A stretch of 64,000 nt of DNA from an uncultured Candidatus Micrarchaeota archaeon (GCA_963741095.1 CAVUGN010000011.1:1-64000); one strand, 5' to 3'. Shown: positions 33,266 through 50,089, numbered from the stretch's first letter. A program made the numbers and translations. Notes: generated by a model not told the origin, from the letters alone.

Positions 33266-33340
33266 TATCTGTATTACTACTTTGGTGGAAGGTATTTATT
33301 AGCTTTTCCGTGAATACTAATCCTGTAACGTCTTCTCAAG

Positions 33341-33416
33341 GGGGAGCTACGCTAACCTGGCAGACCATCAGCCTTGGGCGCTGACAATCGGAGTTCAAAT
33401 CTCCGGCTCCCCACCA
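33341..33416 (+). tRNA. tRNA-Pro (TGG), integration target of the island
   Basis: Acceptor ggggagc/gctcccc plus ACCA; anticodon arm tcagc-ctTGGgc-gctga; T-loop ttcaaat. Confidence 0.92.
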
Positions 33417-33475
33417 GGAAAATTATCGACGACAAAATTCGCCTTTTCGACGTATGTTGGAGATGTGGACTGTAT
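33403..33475 (+). repeat. attL-like site (tRNA 3' end plus right arm)
   Basis: ccggctccccaccaggaaaattatcgacgacaaaattcgccttttcgacg; no left arm. Confidence 0.85.
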
Positions 33476-33535
33476 TCAACAAAACTACATGTAAATCTGG
33501 TATAGTTCCAGGTATAGTCTTGAGTATAGCTTATA

Positions 33536-33796
33536 TTATTTCCTATACTCATAATGGCTCACGGCCTTGCCGTACCTGCTACTTATGTTCTTTGAGATGT
33601 AATCAGCGACATCTAACGGCTCCTTGCCGTCCGTGAACCTGGCCTTGACCACGAATCCGCAGTCGCCTTCGGTCAGTAGGACCTCCTTGACGGACTCGAA
33701 CATCATCAGCTTCTCTGCGATCCCGCCGGCGTCTGCGTTCTCTTTTGGCCTTACGAAATAGAGCCCGTACATCGCGCCTATTCTCTTTTTACCCAT
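33536..33796 (-). CDS. Stand-alone Lrp/AsnC ligand-binding (RAM)-like domain, module 1
   Basis: VKEVLLTEGDCGFVVKA resembles RAM motif; identical protein at 38745. Confidence 0.6.
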   Translation of the reverse strand: MGKKRIGAMYGLYFVRPKENADAGGIAEKLMMFESVKEVLLTEGDCGFVVKARFTDGKEPLDVADYISKNISSRYGKAVSHYEYRK

Positions 33797-33811
33797 GTCA
33801 ATCCACCATAA

Positions 33812-33952
33812 TCATAATCGGTCTATATCAAGCAACTTGACGAACACGCTGTGGCATCTGTCGCATTCCTCGATCACGAACCTGCCGTTCACCACCCGCT
33901 TGCACACCAGCCTTCCTGTTCTGCACCTGCTGCATGCAACGCCGCCGTTCAT
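33812..33952 (-). CDS. 46-aa zinc-ribbon protein (not in ORF track), module 1
   Basis: MNGGVACSRC...EECDRCH; overlaps upstream stop (ATGA); conserved at 39021. Confidence 0.75.
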   Translation of the reverse strand: MNGGVACSRCRTGRLVCKRVVNGRFVIEECDRCHSVFVKLLDIDRL

Positions 33953-34218
33953 CCCTCGATCACCTTACCGTATTCACCGTCCAGTCCTTTCGATATGTAC
34001 GCGGCAGCGTCCTTGGGTTCAGCACCGACGAAAAACTTCACCTTCGCCAGGAACACGCCCTTGTTTTCCATCAAGTTGACTGCCTTCACGCGCTTTAGGG
34101 CAAGGAGCCTTTCCGCAAGACGTTCGCTGACACCGCTCTTCGAATTCCCGAAGTAGAGACGGTGCCAAACCGCATGGCTCGCGCTAACCCTTGTTATTTT
34201 TCCACCCGTATTACACAC
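33949..34218 (-). CDS. Small RAM-like protein, module 1
   Basis: LAERLL..VKAVNLMENKG; conserved copy at 39161. Confidence 0.6.
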   Translation of the reverse strand: MCNTGGKITRVSASHAVWHRLYFGNSKSGVSERLAERLLALKRVKAVNLMENKGVFLAKVKFFVGAEPKDAAAYISKGLDGEYGKVIEG

Positions 34219-34264
34219 CCACTTATTTGCTTACTTTTACATCATCCTGACAAACATGAAAATA

Positions 34265-34465
34265 TCATCTGGACGCTAAAACAGCCCGCGCGGATCCGGA
34301 TCCGTCAAGCAGCATAACCGACCTTCCGGTCCTTTCCAGCTCGCACGCGTTAATGTGCCAAAGATATGCGACTGGATTCTCATGCTCCATACCGCACATC
34401 CAGCACTGGTATGCATTATCGTGCCCTCCCAAAAAGATATCTTTTATTCTTGTTCCCATGCCCAT
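34265..34465 (-). CDS. C2HC zinc-finger small protein, module 1
   Basis: CWMC-x12-H-x3-C; four copies in island. Confidence 0.75.
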   Translation of the reverse strand: MGMGTRIKDIFLGGHDNAYQCWMCGMEHENPVAYLWHINACELERTGRSVMLLDGSGSARAVLASR

Positions 34466-34477
34466 TCTACCACCCCA

Positions 34478-34579
34478 TCAATCATGAGGGTAGGGGGTTG
34501 CACCGCGGAAGCATGGTGATAATGTGGAGGACGAGCTTGCGCTGATCCGTAGAAAATTCTTACTTCCACCCCTGTACAA
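34478..34579 (-). CDS. 33-aa leader ORF MYRGGSKNFLRISASSSSTLSPCFRGATPYPHD (TTG start), module 1
   Basis: First ORF after TATA-like site, GGGTG RBS; homologs have ATG at the same position. Confidence 0.5.
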   Translation of the reverse strand: MYRGGSKNFLRISASSSSTLSPCFRGATPYPHD

Positions 34580-34770
34580 CCTACACACCCATATGATATT
34601 ATGAACTTTGTTGTATATATAAGCAGCCTCGGTTTTTAAGCTGAAGAAACTATAAAAATTGCTATTTTTGTTTAATATTTTTCCAGTTATTCAAATATCA
34701 TATACTGTATAATTAGGAATATAGAGGAGATTAGTAAAGTATAAATATCTGGCTCTATACAATATTATAT

Positions 34771-36192
34771 ATGAAAGAGATACCTTTTGAGGCAAACAAG
34801 GAGCTCGAGCGCCTCAAGAAAGAGTACAAAGCGTACCTTTACGTCAGGATCATAGACGGAAAGTTCTATGTCTACAAAGGGAGCTCAATTTGGGATAAAG
34901 AAACTAAGAAGGTGAGGGGGCTTACCGAGTATCTAGGACGGATAGATGAAAACGGGAAGTTCATAAAGAAGATTTCTAACAAAAAAAAGATCCCGATACA
35001 GACGCTCGTTCAAGGAACTGCTCCGCAAGCCATCCAAACGCTGGTCGACCAGTCTGAGATAAAATTATTGAGAATCCTGAGCATGAATGCAAAGGCAGAT
35101 TTGTCTTTTCTCGGAAAGAAGTTTCTAGGGATCAACTCTTCCGCAACATTCTACAAAGTAAGGCAGCTGAAGGAGAGATATGGCATAAAGGGTATTGCTG
35201 AAATAGATGTTACGAAGCTTGGCTACACTGACTATATAGCTTTTGTGAAATTCGAGGGCGACAAGCCAAGCGCGGATAACATAAGGAAGGCCACTTTGGA
35301 CGAAAGCCAGGTGCAACTAGTGCTTGCTACCAACGGCGAATATGACTTAATAATATACTTCTTAGCCAAGGATAATTTCGATGCATCGGAATTCATATTC
35401 AATTTGAGGTACAAGGAGCATCTGAAGACATGTATATCACAATGGTATTTCTCTCCCATTGACATATGTTATAACTTTATTCCATTAAGAGACCAGTTTT
35501 TCGAGCTGATGAAAGAAAAAGTATGGGTAAAGAGCAGGGAAAGTCAACGCAGATTGGAGGGGCAGCTCACCATCAAGGAGTACAATATACTAAGGGAATT
35601 GAACAGAAATGGTGTCGCAAAGTTCTCAGAAATGGACAAGAAACACGGGCTGGGCGGGGAAGAAACCGCATACATCTACGAAAAGCTTATTGAGAGAGGT
35701 ATACTCAAGAGGATGACAGTAAGTCTTCAGAAAATACCTTTGCAATATAACGCAGTAATCATAATGGGTGTGGTTGACAACAATGGCTTCAGGCGGACTA
35801 GAGACAGGCTGCTGATGGATGTAATAGAGGAGAACGGTACGCCTATCAACAAGTATTCTGTAATGGGAAACATAGGAAACCCTGATGGCGTCATGTTTAT
35901 AATGCCGATAACTCCGAACAACAGGCTCGATGTATTCGAAAGTGAGTTCAAGGAGAGGATAAAAGGTGTGGCACTTAGAACTCTCATAGTCACTGACGTG
36001 CTCGTTGGTTCATTATGTTACAGGAAGTTTGACAACGCAAAGTCTAGGCAATACCGGGCACTGCGGATGGAGGGCAATACAGAGCTATCATTAGCCGATG
36101 TAGACTACGATGAAACAGTTAGAAGGAAGCAAGTTATCAAGAAAGGTGAGGATACAATAGAAGAACTACTCGCCAATAATGAAAATATATAA
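34771..36192 (+). CDS. Tandem Lrp/AsnC-type regulator with N-terminal beta-sheet domain, module 1
   Basis: GKFYVYK..WDK..YLGRI N-domain; two wHTH+RAM units. Confidence 0.8.
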   Translation: MKEIPFEANKELERLKKEYKAYLYVRIIDGKFYVYKGSSIWDKETKKVRGLTEYLGRIDENGKFIKKISNKKKIPIQTLVQGTAPQAIQTLVDQSEIKLLRILSMNAKADLSFLGKKFLGINSSATFYKVRQLKERYGIKGIAEIDVTKLGYTDYIAFVKFEGDKPSADNIRKATLDESQVQLVLATNGEYDLIIYFLAKDNFDASEFIFNLRYKEHLKTCISQWYFSPIDICYNFIPLRDQFFELMKEKVWVKSRESQRRLEGQLTIKEYNILRELNRNGVAKFSEMDKKHGLGGEETAYIYEKLIERGILKRMTVSLQKIPLQYNAVIIMGVVDNNGFRRTRDRLLMDVIEENGTPINKYSVMGNIGNPDGVMFIMPITPNNRLDVFESEFKERIKGVALRTLIVTDVLVGSLCYRKFDNAKSRQYRALRMEGNTELSLADVDYDETVRRKQVIKKGEDTIEELLANNENI

Positions 36193-36248
36193 TGCAGGAA
36201 TAGAATGCAATAACTACTGATGTATCTTACAGAAATTAGCTAATTAAA

Positions 36249-36269
36249 CTACCCTCCTGGTCCTTCCAT
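36249..36269 (-). CDS. Micropeptide MEGPGG
   Basis: TATTTAAG TATA, GGTGA RBS, ATG, stop TAG; one per module. Confidence 0.72.
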   Translation of the reverse strand: MEGPGG

Positions 36270-36318
36270 ATCTTCACCTGTCCAAACATCTCTGAAAAGG
36301 CTTAAATAGCTTGTGTCC
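36270..36318 (-). promoter_or_regulatory. Conserved micropeptide promoter and RBS
   Basis: ACACAAGCTATTTAAGCCTTTTCAGAGATGTTTGGACAGGTGA; also near 41522, 43663, 46675, 52308, 58129. Confidence 0.75.
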
Positions 36319-36444
36319 GTTTGAAATGGGCCAGCGCGAATGCTCGTATAAACAACATCGAACCACGTCGGGCGATGTTGTATAATTGTCTTCATCACGG
36401 TGCATAGATAAGTATTTATACTTATTCTACATAATATACTTAAT

Positions 36445-36675
36445 GTGATGAAGATGACAAACATGACACTGGCCCTGCCGGAAGCGCTCACTGAGATAAT
36501 GAAACGGCACAAGGACATAAAATGGAGCGAGGTGGCCCGCGAGGCCATCTGGGACAAGGCGAGGAAGCTGGAGCTCATGGACAAGATCCTCTCCAAGAGC
36601 GAATTGACCGAAAAGGACGCGTTGGCGATAGGCGCGAAGATAAACGAAGCCGTAGCTAAGAGGCATGGGTTATAA
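36445..36675 (+). CDS. RHH-like antitoxin (VapB-type)
   Basis: MTLALPE..IKWSEVAREAI; upstream of PIN toxin. Confidence 0.75.
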   Translation: MMKMTNMTLALPEALTEIMKRHKDIKWSEVAREAIWDKARKLELMDKILSKSELTEKDALAIGAKINEAVAKRHGL

Positions 36676-37084
36676 CGTGATCCTGGTCGTGGACGCCAAT
36701 GTGGTGATTGCCGCATTGGTAAAGAATGGCAAAGTGCGTGAGATCCTGCTTAGCGACAAGTTCAAGTTCGTCGCACCTGATTTCGTGAAAGAGGAGACTC
36801 TGAAATACCTCGATCTAATAAAACAAAAGTCGGGACTTGCGAAAGACGACCTGGACCTGCTCATAACCCTACTGTTCCAAGAGATAGAAACCATACCCAG
36901 AAGCGAGTATCAATCGCAACTTCCCAAAGCCGAAAGGATGATAAAAAATGATGTAAAGGATGCACCATACGTTGCATGCTACCTGGCGCTGAAATGCGAC
37001 GGGATCTGGACGAACGACTCGGACTATGATGGAAAACCAGAACTGAAAGTGTTCAAAACAGAATACCTTCTGAAATTATTGTAA
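36665..37084 (+). CDS. PIN-domain toxin (VapC-type)
   Basis: VVDANVVIAAL, KDAPYVA, IWTND. Confidence 0.85.
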   Translation: MGYNVILVVDANVVIAALVKNGKVREILLSDKFKFVAPDFVKEETLKYLDLIKQKSGLAKDDLDLLITLLFQEIETIPRSEYQSQLPKAERMIKNDVKDAPYVACYLALKCDGIWTNDSDYDGKPELKVFKTEYLLKLL

Positions 37085-37104
37085 TCCACAACCTTTAGAC
37101 TTGG

Positions 37105-37179
37105 GCATCGTCGAACCATGTTGAACCACGTCGAACGACGTCGTTTCCCAATTGCACTTTTACGACGAAGAACCGGCTC
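37105..37179 (+). repeat. Left att arm with truncated core (ccggctc)
   Basis: catcgtcgaacca...cgtttcccaattgcacttttacgacgaagaaccggctc. Confidence 0.8.
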
Positions 37180-37190
37180 GCGTCGTGCTA

Positions 37191-37511
37191 CTAGATCTCC
37201 AAACCCTCTTTGAGAGCGGCACTGACCAAAGTGATACCTTTTGCCTCCCTCTCGAACTCATTTTTGGTGTAGCTTAAGAAATCCACGGGATAGTCTATCC
37301 CCTGCGATACGTGCCATTCCAAAAGGAGCTTGCTGATCAGCTTCTTTACGGGTTTCCTGATCACAACCAGAAGGTCCACATCGCTGTCCTTCTTTGCCTC
37401 GCCTCTTGCCGAAGAACCGAAGAGTATGATCCGCTCTATTCCGTACGGCTTGGCGACGCTCTCCTTGAAGCCTTTTATCGTTTTTATCAATTGAGGATTG
37501 ACCTTACCCAT
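37191..37511 (-). CDS. Minimal nucleotidyltransferase (MNT)
   Basis: LFGSSARG..DSDVDLLV. Confidence 0.88.
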   Translation of the reverse strand: MGKVNPQLIKTIKGFKESVAKPYGIERIILFGSSARGEAKKDSDVDLLVVIRKPVKKLISKLLLEWHVSQGIDYPVDFLSYTKNEFEREAKGITLVSAALKEGLEI

Positions 37512-37846
37512 TCCAAAACACCTTCACACTTTTCAATCACGTCCTTTGCTTCATCTTCCGAAACGGACCTTGTTACTGGATAGCGCGTATCCACGTAATA
37601 CTCGGTAAGATCGGCACAATAATTAACTATCTCTGCAGTTGCCTTAATGCTTTGGGCGAGCTTCACGAGGTCATGCGTCCTGTCAAATCGGCTCAACTTC
37701 TCTATCTGTGCAGCTTTCAACGCCTTCTCCGCTACCTGCTGGGCATAAAAGGATGCGTCCTTGAGCCTCTCGCTTTCATAGAGAAGCTTTGCAGTCACGA
37801 GATTGTCCTCGGCTTCTTTTATCCACACTCGTGCATCATCTTTCAT
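37487..37846 (-). CDS. HEPN-domain protein
   Basis: QQVAEKALKA, THDL, TRYP; paired with MNT. Confidence 0.85.
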   Translation of the reverse strand: MKDDARVWIKEAEDNLVTAKLLYESERLKDASFYAQQVAEKALKAAQIEKLSRFDRTHDLVKLAQSIKATAEIVNYCADLTEYYVDTRYPVTRSVSEDEAKDVIEKCEGVLEWVRSILN

Positions 37847-37977
37847 GTCCTCATAAGAATTTGCCTTAAAAACCTTAATAATGTTTGCAGTTGGGCCACA
37901 TTCATCCAAAATATTTGAATATGTGTTTTTTTTAAGTGAGTCTTATTCCTTCGTAATGACTCCTAACTCGAAACACA

Positions 37978-38021
37978 AACATCGTCGAACCACTTCGAAC
38001 ACCGTCGTTTCCCAATTGCAC
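37978..38021 (+). repeat. Partial left att arm
   Basis: aacatcgtcgaaccacttcgaacaccgtcgtttcccaattgcac. Confidence 0.75.
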
Positions 38022-38071
38022 CGCCAAAGTACCACACCATAAGAAATATAAAGCAGAAATGCACAATATTA

Positions 38072-38320
38072 GTGATAAAGATGGAAATGGAAGTGTACGG
38101 ATTCAAAGCCAAGATAACCAAGGAAGGTAAGTATCTCATAGGCGAGATACCGGAGCTGCATGTAGCTGATCAGGCCAAGACCCTGAAGGAACTCGAGAGC
38201 GAACTCAAGGATGCGGTAAGCCTAGTTGTAAATCTTATCCTGGACAATCCAAAAGATGCAGCCAAGAACTTCGGTAACGGTGTCATAAGAAAGCTGAGCG
38301 TTCAGGTAATCCGCGCATAG
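38072..38320 (+). CDS. HicB-like antitoxin
   Basis: KEGKYLIGEIPEL..QAKTLKE pattern. Confidence 0.75.
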   Translation: MIKMEMEVYGFKAKITKEGKYLIGEIPELHVADQAKTLKELESELKDAVSLVVNLILDNPKDAAKNFGNGVIRKLSVQVIRA

Positions 38321-38328
38321 GTGTATCC

Positions 38329-38550
38329 ATGTCGCGGTTACGCCCGCTGAAAAGTCCTCTCCTCATAAAGGTGCTGCAGAAATACTACGGCTACAACGCA
38401 CGCTCTGGAAGCGGCAGGCATATAGTTTTGCAGGACTCGGATGGTCATACGACTGTGATCCAGCTTAACATGGAACTCGGCAAAGGCATCCTGAAGAAGA
38501 TACTAAATCAAACTGATTTGAAGTGGAAAGAAATAGAGAAGTACCTCTAA
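38329..38550 (+). CDS. HicA-like toxin
   Basis: GSGRHIVL..TTVI..LGKGILKKIL. Confidence 0.78.
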   Translation: MSRLRPLKSPLLIKVLQKYYGYNARSGSGRHIVLQDSDGHTTVIQLNMELGKGILKKILNQTDLKWKEIEKYL

Positions 38551-38553
38551 ATG

Positions 38554-38684
38554 ACATCGTCGAACCACGTCGACCAACGATGTTTCTCAATCACACTTTT
38601 ACGTCGAAGGACCGGCTCCCCACCAGGAAAATTATCGACGACAAAATTCGTCTTTTCGATGGATGTTGGAGATGTGGACTGTAT
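38554..38684 (+). repeat. attP-like junction (left arm, core 38612-38622, right arm)
   Basis: cacttttacgtcgaaggaCCGGCTCCCCAccaggaaaattatcgacgacaaaa. Confidence 0.85.
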
Positions 38685-38744
38685 TCAACAAAACTACATG
38701 TAAATCTGGTATAGTTCCAGGTATAGTCTTGAGTATAGCCTATA

Positions 38745-39005
38745 TTATTTCCTATACTCATAATGGCTCACGGCCTTGCCGTACCTGCTACTTATGTTCT
38801 TTGAGATGTAATCAGCGACATCTAACGGCTCCTTGCCGTCCGTGAACCTGGCCTTGACCACGAATCCGCAGTCGCCTTCGGTCAGTAGGACCTCCTTGAC
38901 GGACTCGAACATCATCAGCTTCTCTGCGATCCCGCCGGCGTCTGCGTTCTCTTTTGGCCTTACGAAATAGAGCCCGTACATCGCGCCTATTCTCTTTTTA
39001 CCCAT
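38745..39005 (-). CDS. Stand-alone RAM-like domain, module 2
   Basis: Identical to 33536-33796 protein. Confidence 0.6.
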   Translation of the reverse strand: MGKKRIGAMYGLYFVRPKENADAGGIAEKLMMFESVKEVLLTEGDCGFVVKARFTDGKEPLDVADYISKNISSRYGKAVSHYEYRK

Positions 39006-39020
39006 GTCAATCCACCATAA

Positions 39021-39164
39021 TCATAATCGGTCTATATCAAGCAACTTGACGAACACGCTGTGGCATCTGTCACACTCCTCGATCACGAACCTGCCGTTCA
39101 CCACACGCTTGCATACCAGCCTTCCTGTTCTGCACCTACTGCATGCAACTCCCTCGCTGTTCAT
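39021..39164 (-). CDS. 47-aa zinc-ribbon protein, module 2
   Basis: MNSEGVACSRC...CDRC; frame-preserving 3-nt indel versus copy 1. Confidence 0.75.
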   Translation of the reverse strand: MNSEGVACSRCRTGRLVCKRVVNGRFVIEECDRCHSVFVKLLDIDRL

Positions 39165-39430
39165 CCCTCGATCACCGTTCCGTAGTCGCCGTCCAGTCCT
39201 TTCGATATGTACGCGGTAGCGTCCTTGGGTTCAGCACCGACGAAAAACTTCACCTTCGCCAGGAACACGCCCTTGTTTTCCATCAGGTTGACTGCCTTCA
39301 CGCGCTTCAGTGCAAGCAGCCTGTCTGCAAGGCGCTCGCTGACACGGCTCTTTGGATTCCCGAAGTAGAACCGGTGCCAAACAGCATGGCTCGCGCTGAC
39401 ACTTGTTACTTTTCCACCCGTATTACACAC
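39161..39430 (-). CDS. Small RAM-like protein, module 2
   Basis: Paralog of 33949-34218. Confidence 0.6.
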   Translation of the reverse strand: MCNTGGKVTSVSASHAVWHRFYFGNPKSRVSERLADRLLALKRVKAVNLMENKGVFLAKVKFFVGAEPKDATAYISKGLDGDYGTVIEG

Positions 39431-39476
39431 CCACTTCTCTTGCTTTCTTTACCTCATTCTGACAAACATGAAGACA

Positions 39477-39674
39477 TCATCTGGATGCGGAAACAGCCCG
39501 CATTCCTAACTCGCCAAGCAGCATCACCGGCCTGCCGGTCCTTTCCAACTCGCAGGCGTTTATGTGCCACAGATATGCAACTGGATTCTCATGCTCCATT
39601 CCGCACATCCAGCACTGGTACATATTATCGTGCCCTCCAAAGAAGATATCCTTTATCCTTGTTCCCATGCCCAT
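39477..39674 (-). CDS. C2HC zinc-finger small protein, module 2
   Basis: CWMC..H...C. Confidence 0.75.
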   Translation of the reverse strand: MGMGTRIKDIFFGGHDNMYQCWMCGMEHENPVAYLWHINACELERTGRPVMLLGELGMRAVSASR

Positions 39675-39686
39675 TCTACCATCCTA

Positions 39687-39788
39687 TCAATCATAAGGGT
39701 AGGGGGTTGCACCGCGGAAGCATGGTGATAATGTGGAGGACGAGCTTGCGCTAATCCATAGAAAATTCTTACTTCCACCCCTGTACAA
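39687..39788 (-). CDS. 33-aa leader ORF, module 2
   Basis: MYRGGSKNFLWISASSSSTLSPCFRGATPYPYD. Confidence 0.5.
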   Translation of the reverse strand: MYRGGSKNFLWISASSSSTLSPCFRGATPYPYD

Positions 39789-39971
39789 CCTACACACCCG
39801 TATAGTATCGCGTCATATCCGGTATTTATTAGATACAGAAGACAGGGCGGTAGTATTGATAAAGCGAAAACATTAAAACATATAAATTTATCATTAAGCG
39901 CTCAATCTTCAATTGTTATACATTAAGGATTTAACAAAAGGAATAAATATCCTCTTATTTGATATAACTAC

Positions 39972-41468
39972 ATGCAAGACGTTCCACCACAGATATCTGC
40001 TGCTTTCGAGAAAGTGAAGAAGACGTACCCGTTCTATGTCTCGCTGAAGAGGATATACGGAAAATATTACGTATACAAAGTGAAGGTCGTCTGGGACCGA
40101 CTAACCAAAAAGACAAAAACAAATTCTGAGTACTTGGGCCGGATAACCAGCGATGGGAAATATAAAAAGAAGAGCATCACACCGAATGATTACCTGAGAA
40201 AGGCCGAGGCACTCATCGCTTCCAAAGGTGGGAAGATAACGTGGGACGGAATTGAGAAAGTCCGGGGTGCAAACGAGCAGATTAAAGAGGAACAGATCGA
40301 GGAAACTGTTGCCGACGAATTGGAAACGAAGATACTGACTATATTGAGTATGAACGGCCGCGCGTCGATACCTTTCATAAGCAAGATGGTTGGTCTTAGC
40401 AATGCTACAACAGATTATCACGTAAAGAAGATCGAAGAGAAATACGGCATCAGATATTTTCCAGAGATAGACGTAGACAAATTAGGTTATGCCAGCTTTA
40501 TGATATCCATAAAATTTGAAGATGAGGTTCCGAGTGCAGAAGAGATTAAAAGAGAGCTTAGCAAATTTCCTGGAGTACAACTTGCAATGGTAACTCATGG
40601 TAGATATGACCTAATAATTCATTTTGTAACCGGGACCGAATATATGCCAAATAGTTATGGATGGGCATCTCAGAATGAAATATATGACCTCCAAAATAAT
40701 GCTTTTAGAGCAAACAAGGCAAAATGGTACGTGTCAACGTTTTACAGAACATATGGATGCGTACCGTTGAGAAACGAATTTTTTGATATGATGAAGAAAA
40801 TAGTGTGGGAAAAAAGCAAAGAGAGCAGGAGACCTAAGCCAAATCAACTTCTTCCTAGGGAGTATTTCGTACTAAAAGAACTAAACTTAGATGGTAGGTG
40901 CGAATTCACAGAAATAGACAATAGATGCAATTTTGATAGGGGTAGATCAGATTACACCTATAAAAGATTAGTTGAAAATAAAACAATAAAACGCATCACG
41001 TTGACAATGCAGAAACCTCCGGTAAAGTATGTGGCAATAATCTATATGGATTTTATAAAAAGAGATGAGTTTTCAAAGAGCAGAGTGAATCTTTTATTAG
41101 ACATAATAGAGCGGCGAACACAAATAAACAAATACGCACTTGTTGGCGATGCGAGCATTCCATATGGTGGATTCTTCATACTGCCGATAACTCAAGATGG
41201 GCTACTAGAAAAAGTCACCGAGCAATTAAAGAGCATAAGCGGCACAAACGTATACGCTCTTGTTGCAAGCGAGATAGTCTTAGGTAGCCTTTGTTATAGA
41301 TTATTTGATAACGCATACTCAAGCCAGCAACGCATGTTGGCTGATGAGTACAAGAAGCATCCAGTTGAAAAAGCGAATTATTTGGGCGTAGCAAAAACCA
41401 AAAAGAGTAGTATAAAATTAGATATAAGGGGATTGCCTACTGACAAATCAACAGATGACGTTACATAA
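39972..41468 (+). CDS. Tandem Lrp-type regulator, module 2
   Basis: Same architecture; ILTILSMNGRASI HTH; VPLRNEFF linker. Confidence 0.8.
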   Translation: MQDVPPQISAAFEKVKKTYPFYVSLKRIYGKYYVYKVKVVWDRLTKKTKTNSEYLGRITSDGKYKKKSITPNDYLRKAEALIASKGGKITWDGIEKVRGANEQIKEEQIEETVADELETKILTILSMNGRASIPFISKMVGLSNATTDYHVKKIEEKYGIRYFPEIDVDKLGYASFMISIKFEDEVPSAEEIKRELSKFPGVQLAMVTHGRYDLIIHFVTGTEYMPNSYGWASQNEIYDLQNNAFRANKAKWYVSTFYRTYGCVPLRNEFFDMMKKIVWEKSKESRRPKPNQLLPREYFVLKELNLDGRCEFTEIDNRCNFDRGRSDYTYKRLVENKTIKRITLTMQKPPVKYVAIIYMDFIKRDEFSKSRVNLLLDIIERRTQINKYALVGDASIPYGGFFILPITQDGLLEKVTEQLKSISGTNVYALVASEIVLGSLCYRLFDNAYSSQQRMLADEYKKHPVEKANYLGVAKTKKSSIKLDIRGLPTDKSTDDVT

Positions 41469-41488
41469 GCAGAATGCACTTTAGCTTT

Positions 41489-41521
41489 TTATCCGTTACC
41501 TCCTGTTCCTCCTCCTTCCAT
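41489..41521 (-). CDS. Micropeptide MEGGGTGGNG
   Basis: Conserved TATA/RBS; stop TAA. Confidence 0.72.
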   Translation of the reverse strand: MEGGGTGGNG

Positions 41522-41723
41522 ATTTTCACCTGTCCAAATATCTCTGAAAAGGCTTAAATAGCTTGTGTCCGTTTGAAATGGGCCAGCGCGAATGCTCGTA
41601 TAAACAACATCGAACCACGTCGGGCGATGTTGTATAATTGTCTTCATCACGGTGCATAGATAAGTATTTATACTTATTCTACATAATATACTTAATGTGA
41701 TGAAGATGACAAACATGAAGACA

Positions 41724-41921
41724 TCATCTGGATGCGGAAACAGCCCGCATTCCTAACTCGCCAAGCAGCATCACCGGCCTGCCGGTCCTTTCCAACTCGC
41801 AGGCGTTTATGTGCCACAGATATGCAACTGGATTCTCATGCTCCATTCCGCACATCCAGCACCGGTACGCATCGCCGCGCTCTCCCAAGAAAATATCTCT
41901 TATCCTTGTCCCTATGCCCAT
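41724..41921 (-). CDS. C2HC zinc-finger small protein, module 3
   Basis: CWMC..H...C. Confidence 0.75.
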   Translation of the reverse strand: MGIGTRIRDIFLGERGDAYRCWMCGMEHENPVAYLWHINACELERTGRPVMLLGELGMRAVSASR

Positions 41922-41937
41922 TCTACCACTCTATCAA

Positions 41938-42033
41938 TCATGAGGGTAGAGGATTGTACTGTGGAAGTGTGGTGAGACTCTGGACAGAGCCTGCGCTGAA
42001 TCTAGAAAAATGCTTACTTCCACCCACATACAT
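41938..42033 (-). CDS. 31-aa leader ORF variant, module 3 (C-terminal half frameshifted relative to other copies)
   Basis: ATG after GGGTGGG; MYVGGSKHFSRFSAGSVQSLTTLPQYNPLPS. Confidence 0.4.
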   Translation of the reverse strand: MYVGGSKHFSRFSAGSVQSLTTLPQYNPLPS

Positions 42034-42242
42034 ATCCTTCCCACCCATGGTAGATGCTATGAAGAAGCTTTTATAAATAGGCTCTCAGAATTTTTAATTA
42101 TATATATCAATACAGGTATGAAATTCCAATAAATCTCATACTATTTAACCATATTAACCATATATAATAGATGGCAGATTAGTATAATGGTTAAATAGAT
42201 AAATTAGAAAGTTATATATATTACCCATTATAAGGCATATGT

Positions 42243-43622
42243 ATGGCAAAACTTCCTGAAAAGGTAGCAGAGACGCTAAATGCACTCAGAAAGGGGAGTA
42301 AGCATTCTTTAAGTGTCAAAATAATCCATGGCGGTTATTACTTGTACGAAGAGGCCACAAAATGGAACAAGCAATTAAAGAAGCAGGATTTCTACTCCGT
42401 ATATCTGGGTAAGATAGATGATGCAGGAATCTTAACACCGCCCCATCACAAGAAAGAGGTTACAAAAACAGAAACCCTTGAAGCGTATATCGCCAAACGG
42501 CAACATGATGAGGCGACAGGGAAAAATCTGCGCTTAAGCAGGATACAGGATTCGATAATCAAGATACTGAGTACTGATGCAAGGATTCCTGTGGAAGAGA
42601 TAAGCACAATGATTGGGATCCCATATTCCACTGTTGCCTATCAGATAAAAAAACTTGAGAAGGATCTTGACATAAAGTATACTCTAGACACTTATGCCGC
42701 TTACAATTTCGGATTTTATAGGTTCATAGTAACAGTAAAATTCAGGGATAAAAAACCAACAACAGAAGAGATAAAGAAAAGTTTGGGCGATGACCCTCAT
42801 ATACAGTTAGTAATGCTTGGCAGGGGCGAATTTGACATTTTCATGTATCTTCTTTTTGATAATACTGTTAATGTAGAGGGTTGGATCTTTGACCTGAGGA
42901 AAAAGGAGGGTCTATCCAAGTACACGGCAGACTGGAATGTATCCTATCTTTTGATAGGCCATGGTATAATACCCCTACGGGATAAGTTTTTTGAGTTGTT
43001 TGAAGATAGGATATGGCACAGGACAAAAGAGATGCCGAGGAAAGGCGCAGACCAGATATACTACCGAGAGTATGCAGTGCTTAAGGAGTTGACCAAGGAT
43101 GGTCTGAAAAGATTCAAGGAAATAGACAAGGATTACAAGCTCAATTCTGGGAGTGCGCAATACACTTACCATGAACTGGTGGCCAAAGGCGCCATTCGCA
43201 GGGTAACCATATCCATGCAGAAAGCTCCGATAAAATACAATGTGATAATACAGATGAAACAAGTGAACATGAAAAGATATATGAAAAGCAGAGAGAAGTA
43301 TTTCTCATACCTTCTAGAAGACCGTGGGGTTCCAACCAACAAAATATCCCTGCTTGGAGATATTGGAACGCCATACGGACAGGTAATTATAATGCCGGTA
43401 TACGAAGACGGAGACCTTGATAGGATAGACGAGGACCTAAAGTCCATAGTCAAGGGAGTGGAGCTAAAGATTACCGTGGTTACCAATATTTTAATAGGAT
43501 CCATATGCTACAACAAGATAGAAGAAAAGAGTACATTTATGTACAACAAACTAACCAGCAAGCAAACCAACCAGATACAGAATAAGAGTCCATACGAAGA
43601 AGACGATGACAGCTCGTACTAA
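42243..43622 (+). CDS. Tandem Lrp-type regulator, module 3
   Basis: IIKILSTDARIPV HTH; IPLRDKFF linker. Confidence 0.8.
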   Translation: MAKLPEKVAETLNALRKGSKHSLSVKIIHGGYYLYEEATKWNKQLKKQDFYSVYLGKIDDAGILTPPHHKKEVTKTETLEAYIAKRQHDEATGKNLRLSRIQDSIIKILSTDARIPVEEISTMIGIPYSTVAYQIKKLEKDLDIKYTLDTYAAYNFGFYRFIVTVKFRDKKPTTEEIKKSLGDDPHIQLVMLGRGEFDIFMYLLFDNTVNVEGWIFDLRKKEGLSKYTADWNVSYLLIGHGIIPLRDKFFELFEDRIWHRTKEMPRKGADQIYYREYAVLKELTKDGLKRFKEIDKDYKLNSGSAQYTYHELVAKGAIRRVTISMQKAPIKYNVIIQMKQVNMKRYMKSREKYFSYLLEDRGVPTNKISLLGDIGTPYGQVIIMPVYEDGDLDRIDEDLKSIVKGVELKITVVTNILIGSICYNKIEEKSTFMYNKLTSKQTNQIQNKSPYEEDDDSSY

Positions 43623-43638
43623 GAATGTATTATACGCT

Positions 43639-43662
43639 TTATGCTCCTCCTCCATCTCCCAT
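43639..43662 (-). CDS. Micropeptide MGDGGGA
   Basis: Conserved TATA/RBS; stop TAA. Confidence 0.7.
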   Translation of the reverse strand: MGDGGGA

Positions 43663-44363
43663 AGTTTCACCTGTCCAAACATCTCTGAAAAGGCTTAAAT
43701 AGCTTGTGTATCTGCAGAGAGGGCATTTCCGGATGTCGCATGAAAGCACTAAATATCTGGACAGGCGCAATAAATACGGGCCGGATGGGCGGAACTGTTA
43801 TCTATCTGCAAGTTCCACCCCCCATCCGACTTTGCGGTTTTTGGCGAGGCGGATGCGGGCGAGCGCGCCATGCCGAGGCGCTGAGCGCCGAGAACGGCGC
43901 CGAGCGTAACAGTGCGGGGTTGCTGCGGTTAAGCTTGAGTTACCTTTGTCCAGCTAAGGCAACGCTTAGCTGCTCAAGCTCATGATGCTGCTCAAGCTGG
44001 TGGTGTTGCTAATGCTGGTTATGCTGCTGTTGGTGTTGTTGCCGCTGTTGCTGCTGTTGCCGTTGCAGGTGTTTGTGCCGGATGCTGCCTGGCTTGCACT
44101 CGCCATCACGTTCGCTCCGCACTCGCTCGCGTGGGCTCGCGGGCAGCAGGCTCTCCGCTCGCTTCGCTCGCTCCGAGCCTGGGGCTTGCCAGGCATATAC
44201 ACAATCAAAGATATGGAAAGCAGGCCGTAAACCGCTGACCTTGGGATGCTTTAGGTATAGCACCCTGCCGACTAGGGCAATCCTGGCTATACTCAACAAG
44301 ACTATACATCGGTCAGATATAGTTTTGGGTATAGTTCCATGGCAGTACGCACTCCCTTACTAT

Positions 44364-44654
44364 TCATCCTTCAACCATCGATACGAAGGCCCTGCCGATG
44401 CCTCGCGGTGCCCGGTCCTTTGCGTCCTTCAGCTCGCTCCTGTCCCTGTAGAACCTGACCTCTGCCACGCAGTCGCCGTTGCTGTCGTAGAGAGGGATGC
44501 GCTGCCTGCGCCATATGTCCATCAGCCTCTCCGCGAGGTCGCCTTTCCCGCCCTTCAGCTGCAGGAATACGGTCCTGCACAACCCTTTCTTGCCTTTTCC
44601 GCTCGCTTGCGCTAACCTATTCGTTGTCAATTTTCCACCCTTTTTTGCACCCAC
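44364..44654 (-). CDS. Small conserved protein (distant RAM-like), module 4
   Basis: DLAERL..GDCVAEVRF; copies at 50090 and 55740. Confidence 0.6.
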   Translation of the reverse strand: MGAKKGGKLTTNRLAQASGKGKKGLCRTVFLQLKGGKGDLAERLMDIWRRQRIPLYDSNGDCVAEVRFYRDRSELKDAKDRAPRGIGRAFVSMVEG

Positions 44655-44668
44655 TTAACGTGACTTGA

Positions 44669-44857
44669 TTAACTCCTTGAATTCGCATCTATCATGACGC
44701 GCATGCTCCCGGCTGACAGTTCCATCATATCGGATATATAGCTGCCGACCTCGCTCTCCCTGCAGTACGCCTTGCCTTCCACGCTGTCCGTGTGCACCTG
44801 CACGAGAACGCTCCTGTCGTTTCCCAAGATATGCTTTATACTTGCACTCACGCCCAT
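44669..44857 (-). CDS. 62-aa conserved small protein, module 4
   Basis: Paralog at 56049-56225. Confidence 0.65.
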   Translation of the reverse strand: MGVSASIKHILGNDRSVLVQVHTDSVEGKAYCRESEVGSYISDMMELSAGSMRVMIDANSRS

Positions 44858-44866
44858 TCTACAACC

Positions 44867-44971
44867 TTATTGATCGTTAGGGCAGACGATTGTACTGCGG
44901 AAGCATGGTGTGATTATGGAGGGAGAGCCTGCGCTGACCCATAGAAAATCGTTACTTCCACCCCTGTACAT
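44867..44971 (-). CDS. 34-aa leader ORF, module 4
   Basis: ATG after GGGTGG; MYRGGSNDFLWVSAGSPSIITPCFRSTIVCPNDQ. Confidence 0.5.
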   Translation of the reverse strand: MYRGGSNDFLWVSAGSPSIITPCFRSTIVCPNDQ

Positions 44972-45154
44972 CCTTTCCACCCGCATAGTATTATGAATCG
45001 AGTTGTATATATATTTATACTGATATTTATTGTAGATGAGCAGATGATACTACGAATATGGCATTAATAATTTATCAATTAGTATGCTTCGACCAGTGGT
45101 ATCGAGCTAGGTAGGATAATAAGATATTAATATTTATCTATTATAATTATAAAT

Positions 45155-46567
45155 ATGCAAAGGATGCCTGACAGAGTAAGCGAGACATACGAAAGGCTAA
45201 AGAAAGAGATGGCATTTCCCGTGCGGCTACAGGTGAGCGGAGGGCGCTATTACATTTACAAGCAACTGACTGTATGGGACAAGGAAACGAAGAAAGGCAA
45301 ATCTGTAGCCAAGTACCTGGGCAAGATACTTGATGACGGCACTTTCGTGAGGAAGGCGAATCGCAATGCGGCCAAGGATCTTGATGTGGCCAAAGCGGTG
45401 ATAATCTCGTGCGGCGGTACGGTAAAGCTGCCAGAAAAAATCAAAGTGGGAGCAAAGCCGCCCATCATGGAAGAGGTGGATAGGAAAATTCTGATGAATC
45501 TTAGCATGAACTGTAGGATGCCGTTATCTGTAATTGCGAAAAGAGCAGGCATATCGACTACTTCTGCTGTCTATAAGAAAAGGAATCTAGAGAAAAAGTG
45601 CGGTATACGGTATCTTACGTCAATAACTGTGCGCTGGCTTGGATTTTCATATTACGTCGCATTCGTGAAATTCGAGAACGAAAAACCGAACGCGAAAGAG
45701 TTGAAAGAAACGATTGAAAGAGAACAAAGGATCCAGTTAGCATTGATTACCACGGGTAAATACGACTTGATGCTCTACATGGTTGCAGAAGACGACGACA
45801 AGCTGAATGAAGTTGTCACTACGTTGCATGGCAGCGAGACGTTGAAAAAGTATACGAGTAGTTGGATGGTAACAACATATGTAGACAAATACGGCTACGT
45901 GCCATTGAGAGATGAATTTTTCGAACTGCTCAAGAGCAGAGTATGGCAAAGGACAAAAGAAACGCCTCGACCTTCGCGCGGCCAGCTCCTGAAGAGCGAA
46001 TACGCAGTATTAAGGGAGCTGAACAGCAGCGGGGAAGCAAGCTTCTCGAAAATAGATAAAAAATACGATCTAAACAAAGGCAATGCGAGGTATACATACG
46101 AAAAGCTAAAGGAAAGGAGAAAGTACACGTATGAGGAGATTGCTGACAAGAAAGTTCTTTTGAGGAATACACTTACTATGGACAATCTAGCAGTCAGATA
46201 CAACACTATACTCATAATGGAGATACTCAACAGCAAGGAATTCCTTGAGCGAAGGGAGGGTCTATTCAGGTATATAACTGAGGATACGGGTGGTATAGCT
46301 AACAGATTTTCCGCAATAGGTGATATAGTCACACCATATGGTATGATGTTTATTACGCCAATTTTCAAAGAGAATGAATTGGAAGATATAATTGAGGGGT
46401 TGAACGACAGGGTAAAAGGGGTTAAGTTGGACACGCTTTTGGTTACGGGAGTATTAGTGGGTAGCCTCTTCTACAGAAGATTTGACAATGCGCATGCCCA
46501 ACAGTACGCACAATTGATAAGTGAATACAAAATCAGGCCACAAGAAGAATTGATGGAATATGAGTAA
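45155..46567 (+). CDS. Tandem Lrp-type regulator, module 4
   Basis: DRKILMNLSMNCRMPL HTH; GKYDL RAM. Confidence 0.8.
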   Translation: MQRMPDRVSETYERLKKEMAFPVRLQVSGGRYYIYKQLTVWDKETKKGKSVAKYLGKILDDGTFVRKANRNAAKDLDVAKAVIISCGGTVKLPEKIKVGAKPPIMEEVDRKILMNLSMNCRMPLSVIAKRAGISTTSAVYKKRNLEKKCGIRYLTSITVRWLGFSYYVAFVKFENEKPNAKELKETIEREQRIQLALITTGKYDLMLYMVAEDDDKLNEVVTTLHGSETLKKYTSSWMVTTYVDKYGYVPLRDEFFELLKSRVWQRTKETPRPSRGQLLKSEYAVLRELNSSGEASFSKIDKKYDLNKGNARYTYEKLKERRKYTYEEIADKKVLLRNTLTMDNLAVRYNTILIMEILNSKEFLERREGLFRYITEDTGGIANRFSAIGDIVTPYGMMFITPIFKENELEDIIEGLNDRVKGVKLDTLLVTGVLVGSLFYRRFDNAHAQQYAQLISEYKIRPQEELMEYE

Positions 46568-46644
46568 TCTGTGCGCTTACTTCGTTATGAAGGTCAAAAT
46601 AAGCTAGATAAATCAGTTATTTTACAGCAAGCAACAGCTAAAAT

Positions 46645-46674
46645 TCAGCCTCCTCCCGGTCCTCCACCATCCAT
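46645..46674 (-). CDS. Micropeptide MDGGGPGGG
   Basis: Conserved TATA/RBS; stop TGA. Confidence 0.72.
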   Translation of the reverse strand: MDGGGPGGG

Positions 46675-46785
46675 GATCTCACTGTCAAAACATCTCTGAA
46701 AAAGCTTAAATAGCTTGTGTTTCAGTCGGCAACGGGGAAGCGCCGATAACGATGCATGGTTAACATCAGTCAGTAATGTATATCA

Positions 46786-46912
46786 AACAACATCGAACCA
46801 CGACGACAAACATCGTTTCTCAATTGCACTTTTACGTCGAAGAACCGGCTCCCCACCAAAAATTTATCGACGACAAAATTCGCCTTTTCGACGGATGTTT
46901 GAGATGTGAACT
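46786..46912 (+). repeat. attP-like junction (core 46845-46855)
   Basis: cacttttacgtcgaagaaCCGGCTCCCCAccaaaaatttatcgacgacaaaattcgccttttcgacg. Confidence 0.85.
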
Positions 46913-47002
46913 ATACTCAAAAACTATACCCCGGCCAGATACACTCTCAGATATAATATTAGGTATAGCACTGTGGTGTTCAGACATGACGTTGAGCCTT
47001 AC

Positions 47003-48946: not shown

Positions 48947-48958
48947 AATTGATCATCT

Positions 48959-50068
48959 CTAAATATGTGACGGCTGAATTCCCGGATATATTGAAAGTGG
49001 ATTGCTCACGAATTCCATCCTCGCAAAGCGTTCAAGTATCTCTTTTATCGAAAGATATATCTCATTGTGGGTCTTCCCCCTCAGATCCCACCTGTAAGCA
49101 GTATTGTTGCAATCGTCTATATGCAGAACCATGTTTGAAGAAACCAGCGGGTTGAACATCCCCTTTTCGCACATCTTTCCGAAAATAGGGCATTCGCTAA
49201 TGCAGTACTTTGGGTTGAAGAATGCTCCTCTAGAAGAGTTCAATAGCATGACCTTTACGCCACCCACATTCAGCGTGAGCTGGACAGACCCGAATCCCTC
49301 TTCGTTGGATACATCAACCTTTTCAATTTCGTAATCGTGCCTTATCATATTGAGAACTTCTTCGGAATTTATATAATTCCCTCTCCAGTATTCGATAGGC
49401 GAGAGACTCGAATATTTGCCAATACCTCCGTGTGCCCCGTTTGTGGCTATGTACTCATCCTGTATAAAGAGGTTGAACAGTTTCAACGAGAAACCAGACT
49501 TGGCCGCAAACTCGATCATACTGTTTACCTCGCCCATGGTCTGTTTTATTAGTACCATATTTATCCTAGTCTTTATGTCGCGTTCCGAGAGTTCCGATAG
49601 TAGCCTGCGGGTTTTGTCGTTAAGCACCTTGCAAATCCCCTCTTTTGGCTGGTTTGATGTAGAATCCAAGGAAAATTGTACGGATATCCGGTCCTTATGC
49701 CTCTCCAAAACATCCATATGTCGCTCGAGATTCTTTCCGTTAGTTATGACTACAAAATTAATTTCCGGATGAAGGTCCAATATCTTTTCAACCTCATTGA
49801 AAAGCCACTCTACGAGAGTCGGTTCGCCCCCACTGATCTTGAATTTGTCGAAGCCCAGATCGTAGGCCGCTGTAACAGTGGAGAAGAACTCTTCACCCGA
49901 CATATTCGCCCCGATGCTCTTGTTCTGCCCAAAGGGGTAGCAATAGCCGCACTTGTTATTGCATTCCTTTATTACTGCAATGGAGAAATATAACCCTCCC
50001 GCGATTTTTCTTAATTCGTTGTTCTGCACTCTCGTGGCAGATTCCGCTTTCGATGCTTGTTTCTCCAT
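48959..50068 (-). CDS. Radical SAM enzyme (MoaA-like core, Cys-rich C-terminus)
   Basis: CNNKCGYC, SGGEP, ITNG; C-terminal C-x3-C-x6-C..C. Confidence 0.85.
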   Translation of the reverse strand: MEKQASKAESATRVQNNELRKIAGGLYFSIAVIKECNNKCGYCYPFGQNKSIGANMSGEEFFSTVTAAYDLGFDKFKISGGEPTLVEWLFNEVEKILDLHPEINFVVITNGKNLERHMDVLERHKDRISVQFSLDSTSNQPKEGICKVLNDKTRRLLSELSERDIKTRINMVLIKQTMGEVNSMIEFAAKSGFSLKLFNLFIQDEYIATNGAHGGIGKYSSLSPIEYWRGNYINSEEVLNMIRHDYEIEKVDVSNEEGFGSVQLTLNVGGVKVMLLNSSRGAFFNPKYCISECPIFGKMCEKGMFNPLVSSNMVLHIDDCNNTAYRWDLRGKTHNEIYLSIKEILERFARMEFVSNPLSIYPGIQPSHI

Positions 50069-50089
50069 CTTTTCGCCCATCAGATAAGC

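Follow-up and report, generated by a model that had tools for sequence, protein, structure and literature searches.

Why should neighbouring copies of one gene module be nearly identical at both ends and strongly diverged in between? The question is raised by a 64,000-nucleotide (nt) stretch of DNA from an uncultured Candidatus Micrarchaeota archaeon (GCA_963741095.1 CAVUGN010000011.1:1-64000), referred to here as the window. It holds six copies of a module made up of a large regulator gene, a divergent operon on the minus strand and a tiny open reading frame (ORF) convergent with the regulator gene. An earlier note, made from the sequence alone, had proposed that operator, receptor and ligand are swapped together as an exchangeable specificity cassette, as in the agr or comQXP pherotype cassettes, giving co-resident elements orthogonal control; it named uniform divergence across whole modules as one outcome that would speak against this. 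The modules are numbered 1 to 6 along the window and their coordinates are collected in Table 1.

Breakpoints between modules

Self-blastn aligned the left flanks of modules 1 and 2 at 93.4% identity over 1196 columns, and their right flanks (36255-36466 and 41507-41718) at 98.1% over 212 columns. With E-values of 0.0 and 4e-101, respectively, chance is excluded, and the near-identity of both flank pairs asserted in the earlier note is borne out. A sliding scan, with 100-nt windows over a global alignment of the two modules, gave 97-100% identity at 33403-33900 and then 78-96% as far as 34594, a drop to 14-59% across 34600 to ~36250, and a return to 98-100% at 36261-36460. The ~1.66 kb between the flanks is ~50% identical and the two regulators 35-36%. 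Promoter, regulator and peptide are thus as strongly diverged as had been claimed, and divergence along the modules is far from uniform.

Viewed base by base, both breakpoints between modules 1 and 2 are sharp. The left one, at ~34590-34594, likely coincides with the transcript start of the divergent operon, so that the leftward-transcribed DNA is common to the two modules and the DNA that potentially recruits the regulator is different. The right one, at ~36257, falls within the tiny ORF after codon 3, and the two peptides therefore share M-E-G before differing (MEG followed by PGG in module 1 and by GGTGGNG in module 2). The earlier note had begun the right flank just upstream of the peptide ATG; its coordinates were right to within a few bases, but the flank includes the ATG and the first two to three codons.

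Modules 1 and 5 aligned at 84.8% identity by self-blastn (34198-34623 and 50357-50779). Their leaders are 96-97% identical (34466-34600 and 50623-50756) and their regulators 36%, in agreement with the claim that the two share a leader and carry different regulators. The identity extends to ~34605; it reaches the TATA region of the divergent promoter and ends ~10 nt past the breakpoint of the module 1/2 pair.

Besides the six regulators of the window, the 1.08-Mb genome has six more on contigs C1, C5 and C10, which makes 12 paralogues. In a quick maximum-likelihood tree of 62 regulators these 12 are dispersed, with orthologues from other genera between them. The paralogues must accordingly be old, and flank stretches of 100% identity recent. 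The flanks are incongruent with the regulator tree: in modules 1, 2 and 5 leader identity is 96% and regulator identity 34-36%, identity among the peptide promoters of the genome rises to 96%, and the module 1 regulator and its sister on contig C1 have leaders that are only 60% alike. Selection on the promoter cannot explain this, as the left flank common to modules 1 and 2 comprises four protein genes and ~500 nt of perfect identity. One diverged regulator, operator and peptide block between flanks up to 100% identical points to re-assortment of the modules by recombination. We are confident that paralogous modules exchange segments at conserved junctions, namely the leader and the peptide promoter, by homologous recombination or gene conversion. 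The data also support the operator, regulator and peptide block as one recurrent exchanged unit.

The idea of an exchangeable cassette stands, then, in so far as the diverged block holds exactly the operator DNA, the regulator and the variable part of the tiny ORF, but it needs qualification. Breakpoints differ between module pairs, and the operon genes are shuffled too. The first operon gene is of two types, encoding 65-66 amino acids with Cys/His (modules 1, 2, 3 and 5) or 58-63 amino acids (modules 4, 6 and other loci); the second is also of two types, and its combinations with the first are mixed. This argues for general mosaic recombination among the paralogues of one genome, not for allelic pherotypes. 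No cassette swap was found in the single orthologous pair compared, a locus of this genome (G000) and its counterpart in another species of the genus (genome G001). There divergence is gradual, with flanks 80-92%, regulator 70-85% and tiny-ORF region 65-67% identical, and the peptides read MSEGGWS and MAANWGG.

The regulators and their micro-ORFs

The regulators, of 441-498 amino acids, consist of an N-terminal domain and two fused Lrp/AsnC units, each a winged helix-turn-helix (wHTH) followed by a RAM domain. Pairwise identity is 30-41% within the window and 29-46% when all 12 copies of the genome are compared. Pfam gave HTH_AsnC (PF13404) matches in five of the six window regulators (E 6e-11 to 5.5e-5, the cut-off being reached only by modules 3 and 5), weak matches to a second wHTH in some, and a RAM-domain match (PF01037) in module 4 at E 8.6e-5, under the Pfam cut-off. 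A profile of the 12 paralogues searched against the PDB found FL11/PH1519 of Pyrococcus (E 7.9e-16, residues 105-224, spanning HTH plus RAM), LrpA (E 6.6e-13) and many further Lrp/AsnC structures. An AlphaFold2 (AF2) model of the module 1 regulator (pLDDT 82.3, pTM 0.73) showed a helix and four-stranded sheet (1-66), a disordered linker (69-91) and two successive wHTH+RAM units, with the RAM units at 153-235 and 326-413. On these profile matches and predicted folds the regulator is assigned to the Lrp/AsnC (FFRP) proteins, having both the AsnC-type wHTH and the RAM features. The N-terminal domain folded alone (pLDDT 84.6) had no clear structural relative; the best VIA-align Z was only 5.2, so no fold is assigned to these ~66 residues.

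The top Foldseek matches of the whole regulator were structures of the siroheme decarboxylase NirDL, 4ch7 (E 4.5e-12, target TM 0.63) and 4czc, with a root-mean-square deviation (rmsd) of 10-12 A and 12-13% sequence identity. Single Lrp/AsnC structures fit one unit of the regulator at a target TM of 0.6-0.75 and an rmsd of ~3.5 A. NirDL and AhbA-AhbB share with the regulators the fused or paired Lrp/AsnC architecture, and NirDL illustrates that a pseudo-dimer of this kind has room for a large ligand between the RAM domains. No tetrapyrrole genes were found by Pfam among the 73 ORFs between 33084 and 63650, however, and the regulators form a set of 12 divergent paralogues, every one beside a divergent promoter.

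Convergent with each window regulator, 16-79 nt past its stop codon, lies a minus-strand micro-ORF of 6-13 codons. It is preceded by ...AAGCTATTTAAGCCTTTTCAGAGATGTTTGGACAGGTGA-N4-ATG, which comprises a TATA box, a conserved CAGAGA box and a GGTGA Shine-Dalgarno (SD)-like site. A convergent micro-ORF of 5-13 codons is present at 12/12 loci of the genome; four of the loci carry tandem sets of two to four, in which every micro-ORF has a separate SD and ATG. Of 21 occurrences of the pattern TTTAAR-N4-8-YHGAGA in the genome, 17 lie no more than 600 nt from a gene of the regulator family, and the box is retained in other genera and in a relative of 26% identity. A promoter box nearly private to the tiny ORFs and kept across genera suggests that a common factor acts on all the peptide promoters. 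From ATG to stop the window micro-ORFs leave no room for a signal sequence, and neither a signal nor a pro-sequence was found in them.

Full-length homologues from related genomes, at 51 loci (52 regulator ORFs, 49 with the full 530 nt past the stop), were scanned with loose motifs over the 200-260 nt past the stop for a TATA-like hexamer, an SD-like tetramer and an ATG ORF of 3-16 codons. A micro-ORF was found on the convergent strand at 33/49 loci, against 4/49 for the regulator-strand control. In 50 shuffles 6.1 of 49 loci scored on average and 12 at most; the background of the scan amounts to a few false matches. In 41 micro-ORFs Gly accounts for 29% of the residues after Met1 (91/311) and for 4% and 7% in the other two frames; GGN triplets thus keep to the frame of the ATG. 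Overall, the peptides are richest in G, S, D, T, P, N, E and A. The 26%-identical homologue, in a metagenome-assembled genome titled Candidatus Micrarchaeota, is followed by TATA-CCAGA-GGTGA-ATG and a 16-codon ORF. Taken as sequence evidence, these results support the micro-ORF as a real, conserved partner of the regulator family.

Related peptides accompany cross-genus sister regulators: MGDGGGA/MGGTGGGA, MDGAY/MSDCY, MTGPDWTN/MTGPIIGSD, MEKGPAGGG/MKGPNGT and MEGPGG/MEGSCG. Among 47 regulators with a tiny ORF, mean peptide identity was 0.43 for the 9 pairs whose regulators are at least 45% identical and 0.29 for the other 1072 pairs; the observed value was reached in 19/2000 label shuffles. 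As a comparison of sequences, this shows linkage and some shared descent, not co-evolution.

The 12 intergenic regions, when aligned, were 53-70% identical, which is the baseline for AT-rich DNA. A TATA-like ATATTTAA lies ~25 nt before each regulator start codon, implying a leaderless regulator mRNA, and the divergent operon has a semi-conserved TATA, TATATATACAAC...TTCATAATATC, followed by ATA-YGGGTG. Between the two TATAs are 100-130 nt of DNA that is different in every module. In this variable promoter DNA module 3 has a perfect inverted repeat of 12 nt and module 5 a perfect 13-nt direct repeat bracketing the regulator TATA; both are weak candidates for regulator sites. A leader of ~135 nt runs up to the first gene of the minus-strand operon and is 72-96% identical in 8/12 loci. 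RNAalifold predicted a long-range helix and a hairpin over the GGGGTGG ribosome-binding site, but as only 1/31 pairs covaries no leader structure is claimed. No match to the leader was given by nhmmer in loci of other genomes. Rfam found three tRNAs only in the whole window, and tRNA-Pro only in a permissive scan of 33300-46950.

At E <= 1e-10 the regulator family is found in 37/41 of the nearest genomes, own genome counted. In an even sample of the phylum (E <= 1e-40; the tally takes in G054, a genome flagged as unpublished) it is present in 36/45 genomes of the same taxonomic family and in 21/25 of the order's second family, and absent from 80/80 genomes of 18 other families. The genomes measure 0.6-1.3 Mb. 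Several copies occur in other genomes, single-contig ones among them, and the 12 copies here are the highest number among those searched. The family profile retrieved 320 proteins at E <= 1e-30 from 1.84 billion cluster representatives, and a word-based search of 5.8 billion proteins gave 28 matches, named as Lrp-family regulator where the source gave a name. Phage and plasmid collections gave no tblastn match to the regulators, viral and metagenome contigs no relative in close-relative scans, which detect near relatives only, and metagenome contigs no exact match of the peptide-promoter pattern. In related assemblies many family genes start a few hundred bases from a contig end, as expected if the flanks are multi-copy repeats that break short-read assemblies. 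Full-text literature listings, with supplements outside the search, held nothing on archaeal Lrp-type regulators paired with micro-ORFs; one article (PMC5498576) mentions a copper island of 'Ca. Mancarchaeum' with a Lrp/AsnC gene of the ordinary kind.

A possible working of the modules, and its rivals

Lrp/AsnC proteins, the most frequent regulators of archaea, are regarded as sensors of free amino acids. The regulators described here are built from the same wHTH + RAM alpha-beta sandwich unit as FL11/PH1519 and LrpA, but two units are fused in one chain behind an extra N-terminal domain, and the partner is an encoded micro-ORF, whereas the ligands of known members are free amino acids.

The window may be regarded as holding half of a set of twelve paralogous switch modules in the small genome of a DPANN archaeon, each with a regulator, ~170 bp of specific operator DNA, a divergent operon with variable cargo and a convergent micro-ORF. 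The cargo would be small Zn-finger-like and possibly RAM-like proteins, radical SAM enzymes and a peptidase, and elsewhere secreted or ankyrin proteins. We propose that the fused double Lrp/AsnC protein would bind asymmetric, module-specific sites in the variable ~170 bp and, once bound, control both its own leaderless promoter and the divergent operon. The micro-peptide would be translated in the cytoplasm, from a promoter common to all modules, and would act, most probably at the RAM-RAM interface, on its own regulator, where Lrp/AsnC proteins bind ligands, altering assembly or DNA affinity. Twelve similar switches could in this way work side by side in one cytoplasm, their private ligands preventing cross-talk. 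Convergent transcription may bring mutual interference as well, making expression of regulator and peptide exclusive, as in a toggle.

The chances of this model as a whole, with the micro-peptide as private intracellular effector of its own regulator in re-assorted modules, seem to us about even. That the regulator binds the micro-peptide directly is put forward only tentatively. Possible, though doubtful, is the further step that in DPANN archaea of this order ribosomal peptides of 5-16 residues, products of genes among the smallest known, are dedicated ligands of fused double Lrp/AsnC receptors, with receptor, operator and ligand diversifying jointly in re-assorted cassettes that form a dozen insulated switches per cell, a signalling logic not described before; the switches would then control host-interaction and peptide-modifying operons, and might also serve to pass signals among symbiont cells or to and from the host. 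A regulator subfamily that senses its own gene-encoded micro-peptide would, if real, be a new receptor-ligand principle and the first archaeal peptide-based regulatory cassette to be described. The micro-ORFs escape gene callers, yet over 40 regulators have a conserved one beside them, in two families of archaea that have reduced genomes and depend on hosts; for such organisms twelve paralogous switches in 1.08 Mb are a large investment. Modules 1 and 2, with nearly one operon and different regulator, operator and peptide sets, amount to a natural specificity experiment.

Several points weigh against the private-effector model. The peptides are low in complexity and fast-changing, which may mean weak constraint and not specificity; in the closest orthologous pair the regulators are 75% identical and the peptides match at 17% of positions. 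The co-inheritance comparison has 9 close pairs only, and kin are not independent. All peptide promoters carry one common cis element, so the inputs are not private, and the orthogonal control expected by the earlier note would not be complete, the tiny-ORF promoter and its CAGAGA box being common to all modules. The module-specific repeats sit in AT-rich DNA, where chance repeats are frequent. The RNA consists of a few short contigs of one metatranscriptome (X20) on module 1 (34255-34405 and 35607-35770) and the toxin-antitoxin genes, none over the tiny ORF, from which strand, ends and level are not readable. Finally, the tandem order of near-identical flanks is provisional, being that of a metagenome-assembled contig.

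The fast change of the peptides is also what would be expected from the main rival, which we consider rather unlikely: that the micro-ORF is a short leader ORF or promoter, and that its convergent transcript, overlapping the regulator mRNA at the 3' end, acts on the regulator through transcriptional interference or antisense pairing. It would then matter only that the micro-ORF is transcribed or translated, and the mosaic would be plain paralogue recombination. The closely spaced stops of regulator and tiny ORF, which face each other, suit this explanation, as does the conservation of promoter and CAGAGA box beside a peptide sequence that changes fast, the tiny-ORF region being the fastest-changing part of the orthologous pair. 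It accounts less well for a composition kept across genera (Gly, Ser, Asp, Thr, Pro and Asn, with few hydrophobic or basic residues) and for GGN triplets locked to the ATG frame, and the two to four tandem micro-ORFs at several loci, with SD and ATG of their own, are hard to explain so.

Peptide products of 5-13 residues bring to mind the mature signals of the RRNPP systems. In RRNPP pairs (Rap/Phr, NprR/NprX, PlcR/PapR, PrgX/prgQ and AimR/AimP) the regulator gene adjoins a short-peptide gene, a genome or element can hold many orthogonal pairs and the final peptide has 5-10 residues; on pCF10 the genes for the PrgX regulator and the prgQ peptide are convergent. True quorum sensing with pherotypes would have the peptides exit, accumulate, re-enter and activate only the matching regulator, so that co-resident integrated elements or neighbouring cells could be told apart. 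Each regulator does have its own peptide, operator, regulator and peptide are exchanged as a block, and the modules lie in an island bounded by tRNA-end repeats. We nevertheless find this improbable. The host is archaeal and the fold is Lrp/AsnC, not TPR: no TPR family is among the Pfam matches of the six window regulators, and the AF2 model likewise consists of Lrp/AsnC units and the small N-terminal domain. There is no secreted, processed pro-peptide and no exporter or processing gene common to the modules, and the peptides are hydrophilic and Gly-rich. The OppA-type family PF00496, present in 11/14 control genomes, was not found in this 94.4%-complete genome, other importers not having been searched for. 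No swap was seen in the one orthologous pair, and the copies are paralogues in one genome, not alleles among strains.

The last point applies equally to the agr (Staphylococcus) and comQXP (Bacillus) loci. These likewise have a diverged block of signal and receptor between conserved flanks, but theirs are strain alleles of one locus, and they include a receptor of the histidine kinase type and an enzyme that modifies the peptide; the 73 ORFs gave no Pfam match to a kinase, AgrB-like or ComQ-like/prenyltransferase protein. The pherotype analogy drawn in the earlier note therefore holds for the mosaic and fails for the Lrp/AsnC receptor, the lack of a pro-sequence and the paralogues in one genome. 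The system is outside every known peptide-signalling family, and its likeness to RRNPP or pherotype cassettes is analogy only.

It might also be supposed that the tandem array is an assembly artefact, with modules 1 and 2 (perhaps others) as alternative strain alleles of one locus. The ~500 nt of flank at 100% identity exceeds short reads, many family loci of related genomes are at contig ends, and contigs from other samples show indels at the repeated boundary elements. The contig crosses six modules with distinct junctions, however (that between modules 2 and 3, at 41718, has its own microhomology), six further paralogues lie on three other contigs, and other genomes have several copies, including single-contig ones, which makes an artefact very improbable. 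Least credible of all is that the tiny ORFs are precursors of modified peptides, either microcin C-like or like ribosomally synthesised and post-translationally modified peptides (RiPPs), made by operon enzymes, with the large protein as pathway regulator or NirDL/AhbAB-type enzyme: the operons divergent from regulators 5 and 6 do encode radical SAM/SPASM enzymes and an S9 peptidase, and NirDL is the best whole-protein structural match, but such enzymes are in 2/6 window modules only and were seen at none of the other six loci, 6-13 residues leave no space for a leader, the NirDL match is architectural only, and twelve divergent paralogues at divergent promoters fit regulators better than enzymes.

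The island and its neighbouring genes

The six modules occupy ~25 kb (33403-58325), with GC lowered relative to the core genome, beginning at a tRNA-Pro gene. The 3'-end repeat of this tRNA recurs at 38612, 46845 and 58312, with a more degenerate copy at ~52447 read by eye; the 14-nt repeat core is matched four times, where 0.39 matches would be expected. Each copy is flanked on either side by similar sequence, and the boundary repeats are unique to the island within the genome. As read from the sequence, this layout is the pattern of related elements integrated in tandem at one tRNA gene. Archaeal tandem arrays of this kind likewise have an intact tRNA gene with repeated 3' ends as direct repeats at the borders, similar arm sequences, a lower GC than the core genome and toxin-antitoxin cargo. 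The island differs from them in that no integrase was found by Pfam among the 73 ORFs scanned; the single genome-wide match to a tyrosine recombinase (PF00589) is on contig C9, outside the island.

Table 1 Coordinates of the features in the window (positions counted from its first letter)
Feature	Position	Strand	Remarks
tRNA-Pro (UGG)	33341-33416	+	ARAGORN; Rfam tRNA 42.8 bits; last 14 nt (33403-33416) are the first repeat copy
Left flank, module 1	33403-34594		tRNA-end repeat, four minus-strand small ORFs, ~130-nt 5' leader (34466-34594)
Small ORF, module 1 left flank	33536-33796	-	86 amino acids; RAM-like
Small ORF, module 1 left flank	33812-33952	-	46 amino acids; zinc-ribbon-like
Small ORF, module 1 left flank	33949-34218	-	89 amino acids; RAM-like
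Small ORF, module 1 left flank	34265-34465	-	66 amino acids; Cys/His motif
Leader copies	34466-34594, 39675-39803, 41922-42048, 44858-44982, 50623-50756	-	
Variable intergenic region, module 1	34595-34770		Divergent-operon TATA, candidate operators, regulator TATA
Regulator, module 1	34771-36192	+	473 amino acids; alpha+beta N-terminal domain 1-66, disordered linker, wHTH+RAM twice; Pfam, PDB profile, AF2 model, Foldseek
Tiny ORF, module 1	36249-36269	-	MEGPGG; convergent, 56 nt between its stop and the regulator stop
Right flank, module 1	36257-36466		Matches module 2 (41509-41718) at 98-100%; first tiny-ORF codons, GGTGA Shine-Dalgarno-like site, CAGAGA box, TATA (TTTAAG at 36306), hairpin repeat, promoter side of 76-amino-acid ORF/PIN gene pair
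Left flank, module 2	38612-39803		tRNA-end repeat copy, same four small ORFs as module 1, leader
Regulator, module 2	39972-41468	+	498 amino acids
Tiny ORF, module 2	41489-41521	-	MEGGGTGGNG
Regulator, module 3	42243-43622	+	459 amino acids
Tiny ORF, module 3	43639-43662	-	MGDGGGA
RAM-like small ORFs, further	44364-44654, 50090-50368, 56049-56327		Similar to those of module 1
Regulator, module 4	45155-46567	+	470 amino acids
Tiny ORF, module 4	46645-46674	-	MDGGGPGGG
Divergent operon, module 5	47003-50637	-	70-amino-acid ORF, 92-amino-acid ORF, radical SAM enzyme, S9 prolyl-oligopeptidase-family protein
Regulator, module 5	50919-52244	+	441 amino acids
Tiny ORF, module 5	52266-52307	-	MDGGGSGGGGGGG
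Divergent operon, module 6	52560-56327	-	Small ORFs, two radical SAM/SPASM enzymes, 291-amino-acid ORF
Regulator, module 6	56571-58025	+	484 amino acids
Tiny ORF, module 6	58105-58128	-	MDGGASG
tRNA-Pro 3'-end repeat, last degenerate copy	58312-58325	+	Distal end of the ~25-kb island

Three toxin-antitoxin-like sets (36445-38550) separate module 1 from the following repeat: a 76-amino-acid ORF with PIN_2, HEPN with a nucleotidyltransferase, and an 82-amino-acid ORF with a HicA-like gene. They lie between hairpin-repeat copies at 37120-37179, 37976-38021 and 38554-38618. Contigs from other metagenomes join 37103 to 38553 (X1) and 37996 to 38582 (X2 and X4), skipping sets, so these cassettes are variably present in nature. 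Loose ends in X1 and X2 (46809/46856 and 44813/50022), considered as alternative joints, were rejected as cross-mapping of the module 6 region onto the repeats. The X2 reads are deep on module 1, with little or none on much of modules 2-5, and were not used as a sign of absence.

Beside the small ORFs of the divergent operons, the radical SAM enzyme and S9 prolyl-oligopeptidase of module 5 (47003-50080) and the two radical SAM/SPASM enzymes of module 6 (53402-55314) resemble peptide-modification clusters, which the module regulators would control. Several tiny peptides (MEGPGG, MDGGGPGGG) have Pro at position 3-6, which would suit a prolyl oligopeptidase, a link that is speculative. The operon proteins of 86-96 amino acids resemble stand-alone RAM domains in their predicted strand-helix pattern, and one of them matched the Pfam Lrp/AsnC ligand-binding domain at E 0.037, below the cut-off; if real RAM domains, they could co-assemble with the regulators. 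At two other loci of the family, L004 (contig C5, ~93000-97900) and L005 (~48000-52800 and ~56100-58800), operons read by eye encode four or five ankyrin-repeat-like paralogues with a common N-terminus, or proteins of 616-739 amino acids with a hydrophobic N-terminal segment; these products are candidate host-interaction cargo.

At the opposite end of the window, a 261-nt unit is repeated ten times head to tail over positions 1-2649, nine of the copies being 100% identical. The copies lie inside an open frame of at least 1484 amino acids that runs off the window start and ends at 4456, and which probably encodes a repeat-rich surface protein.

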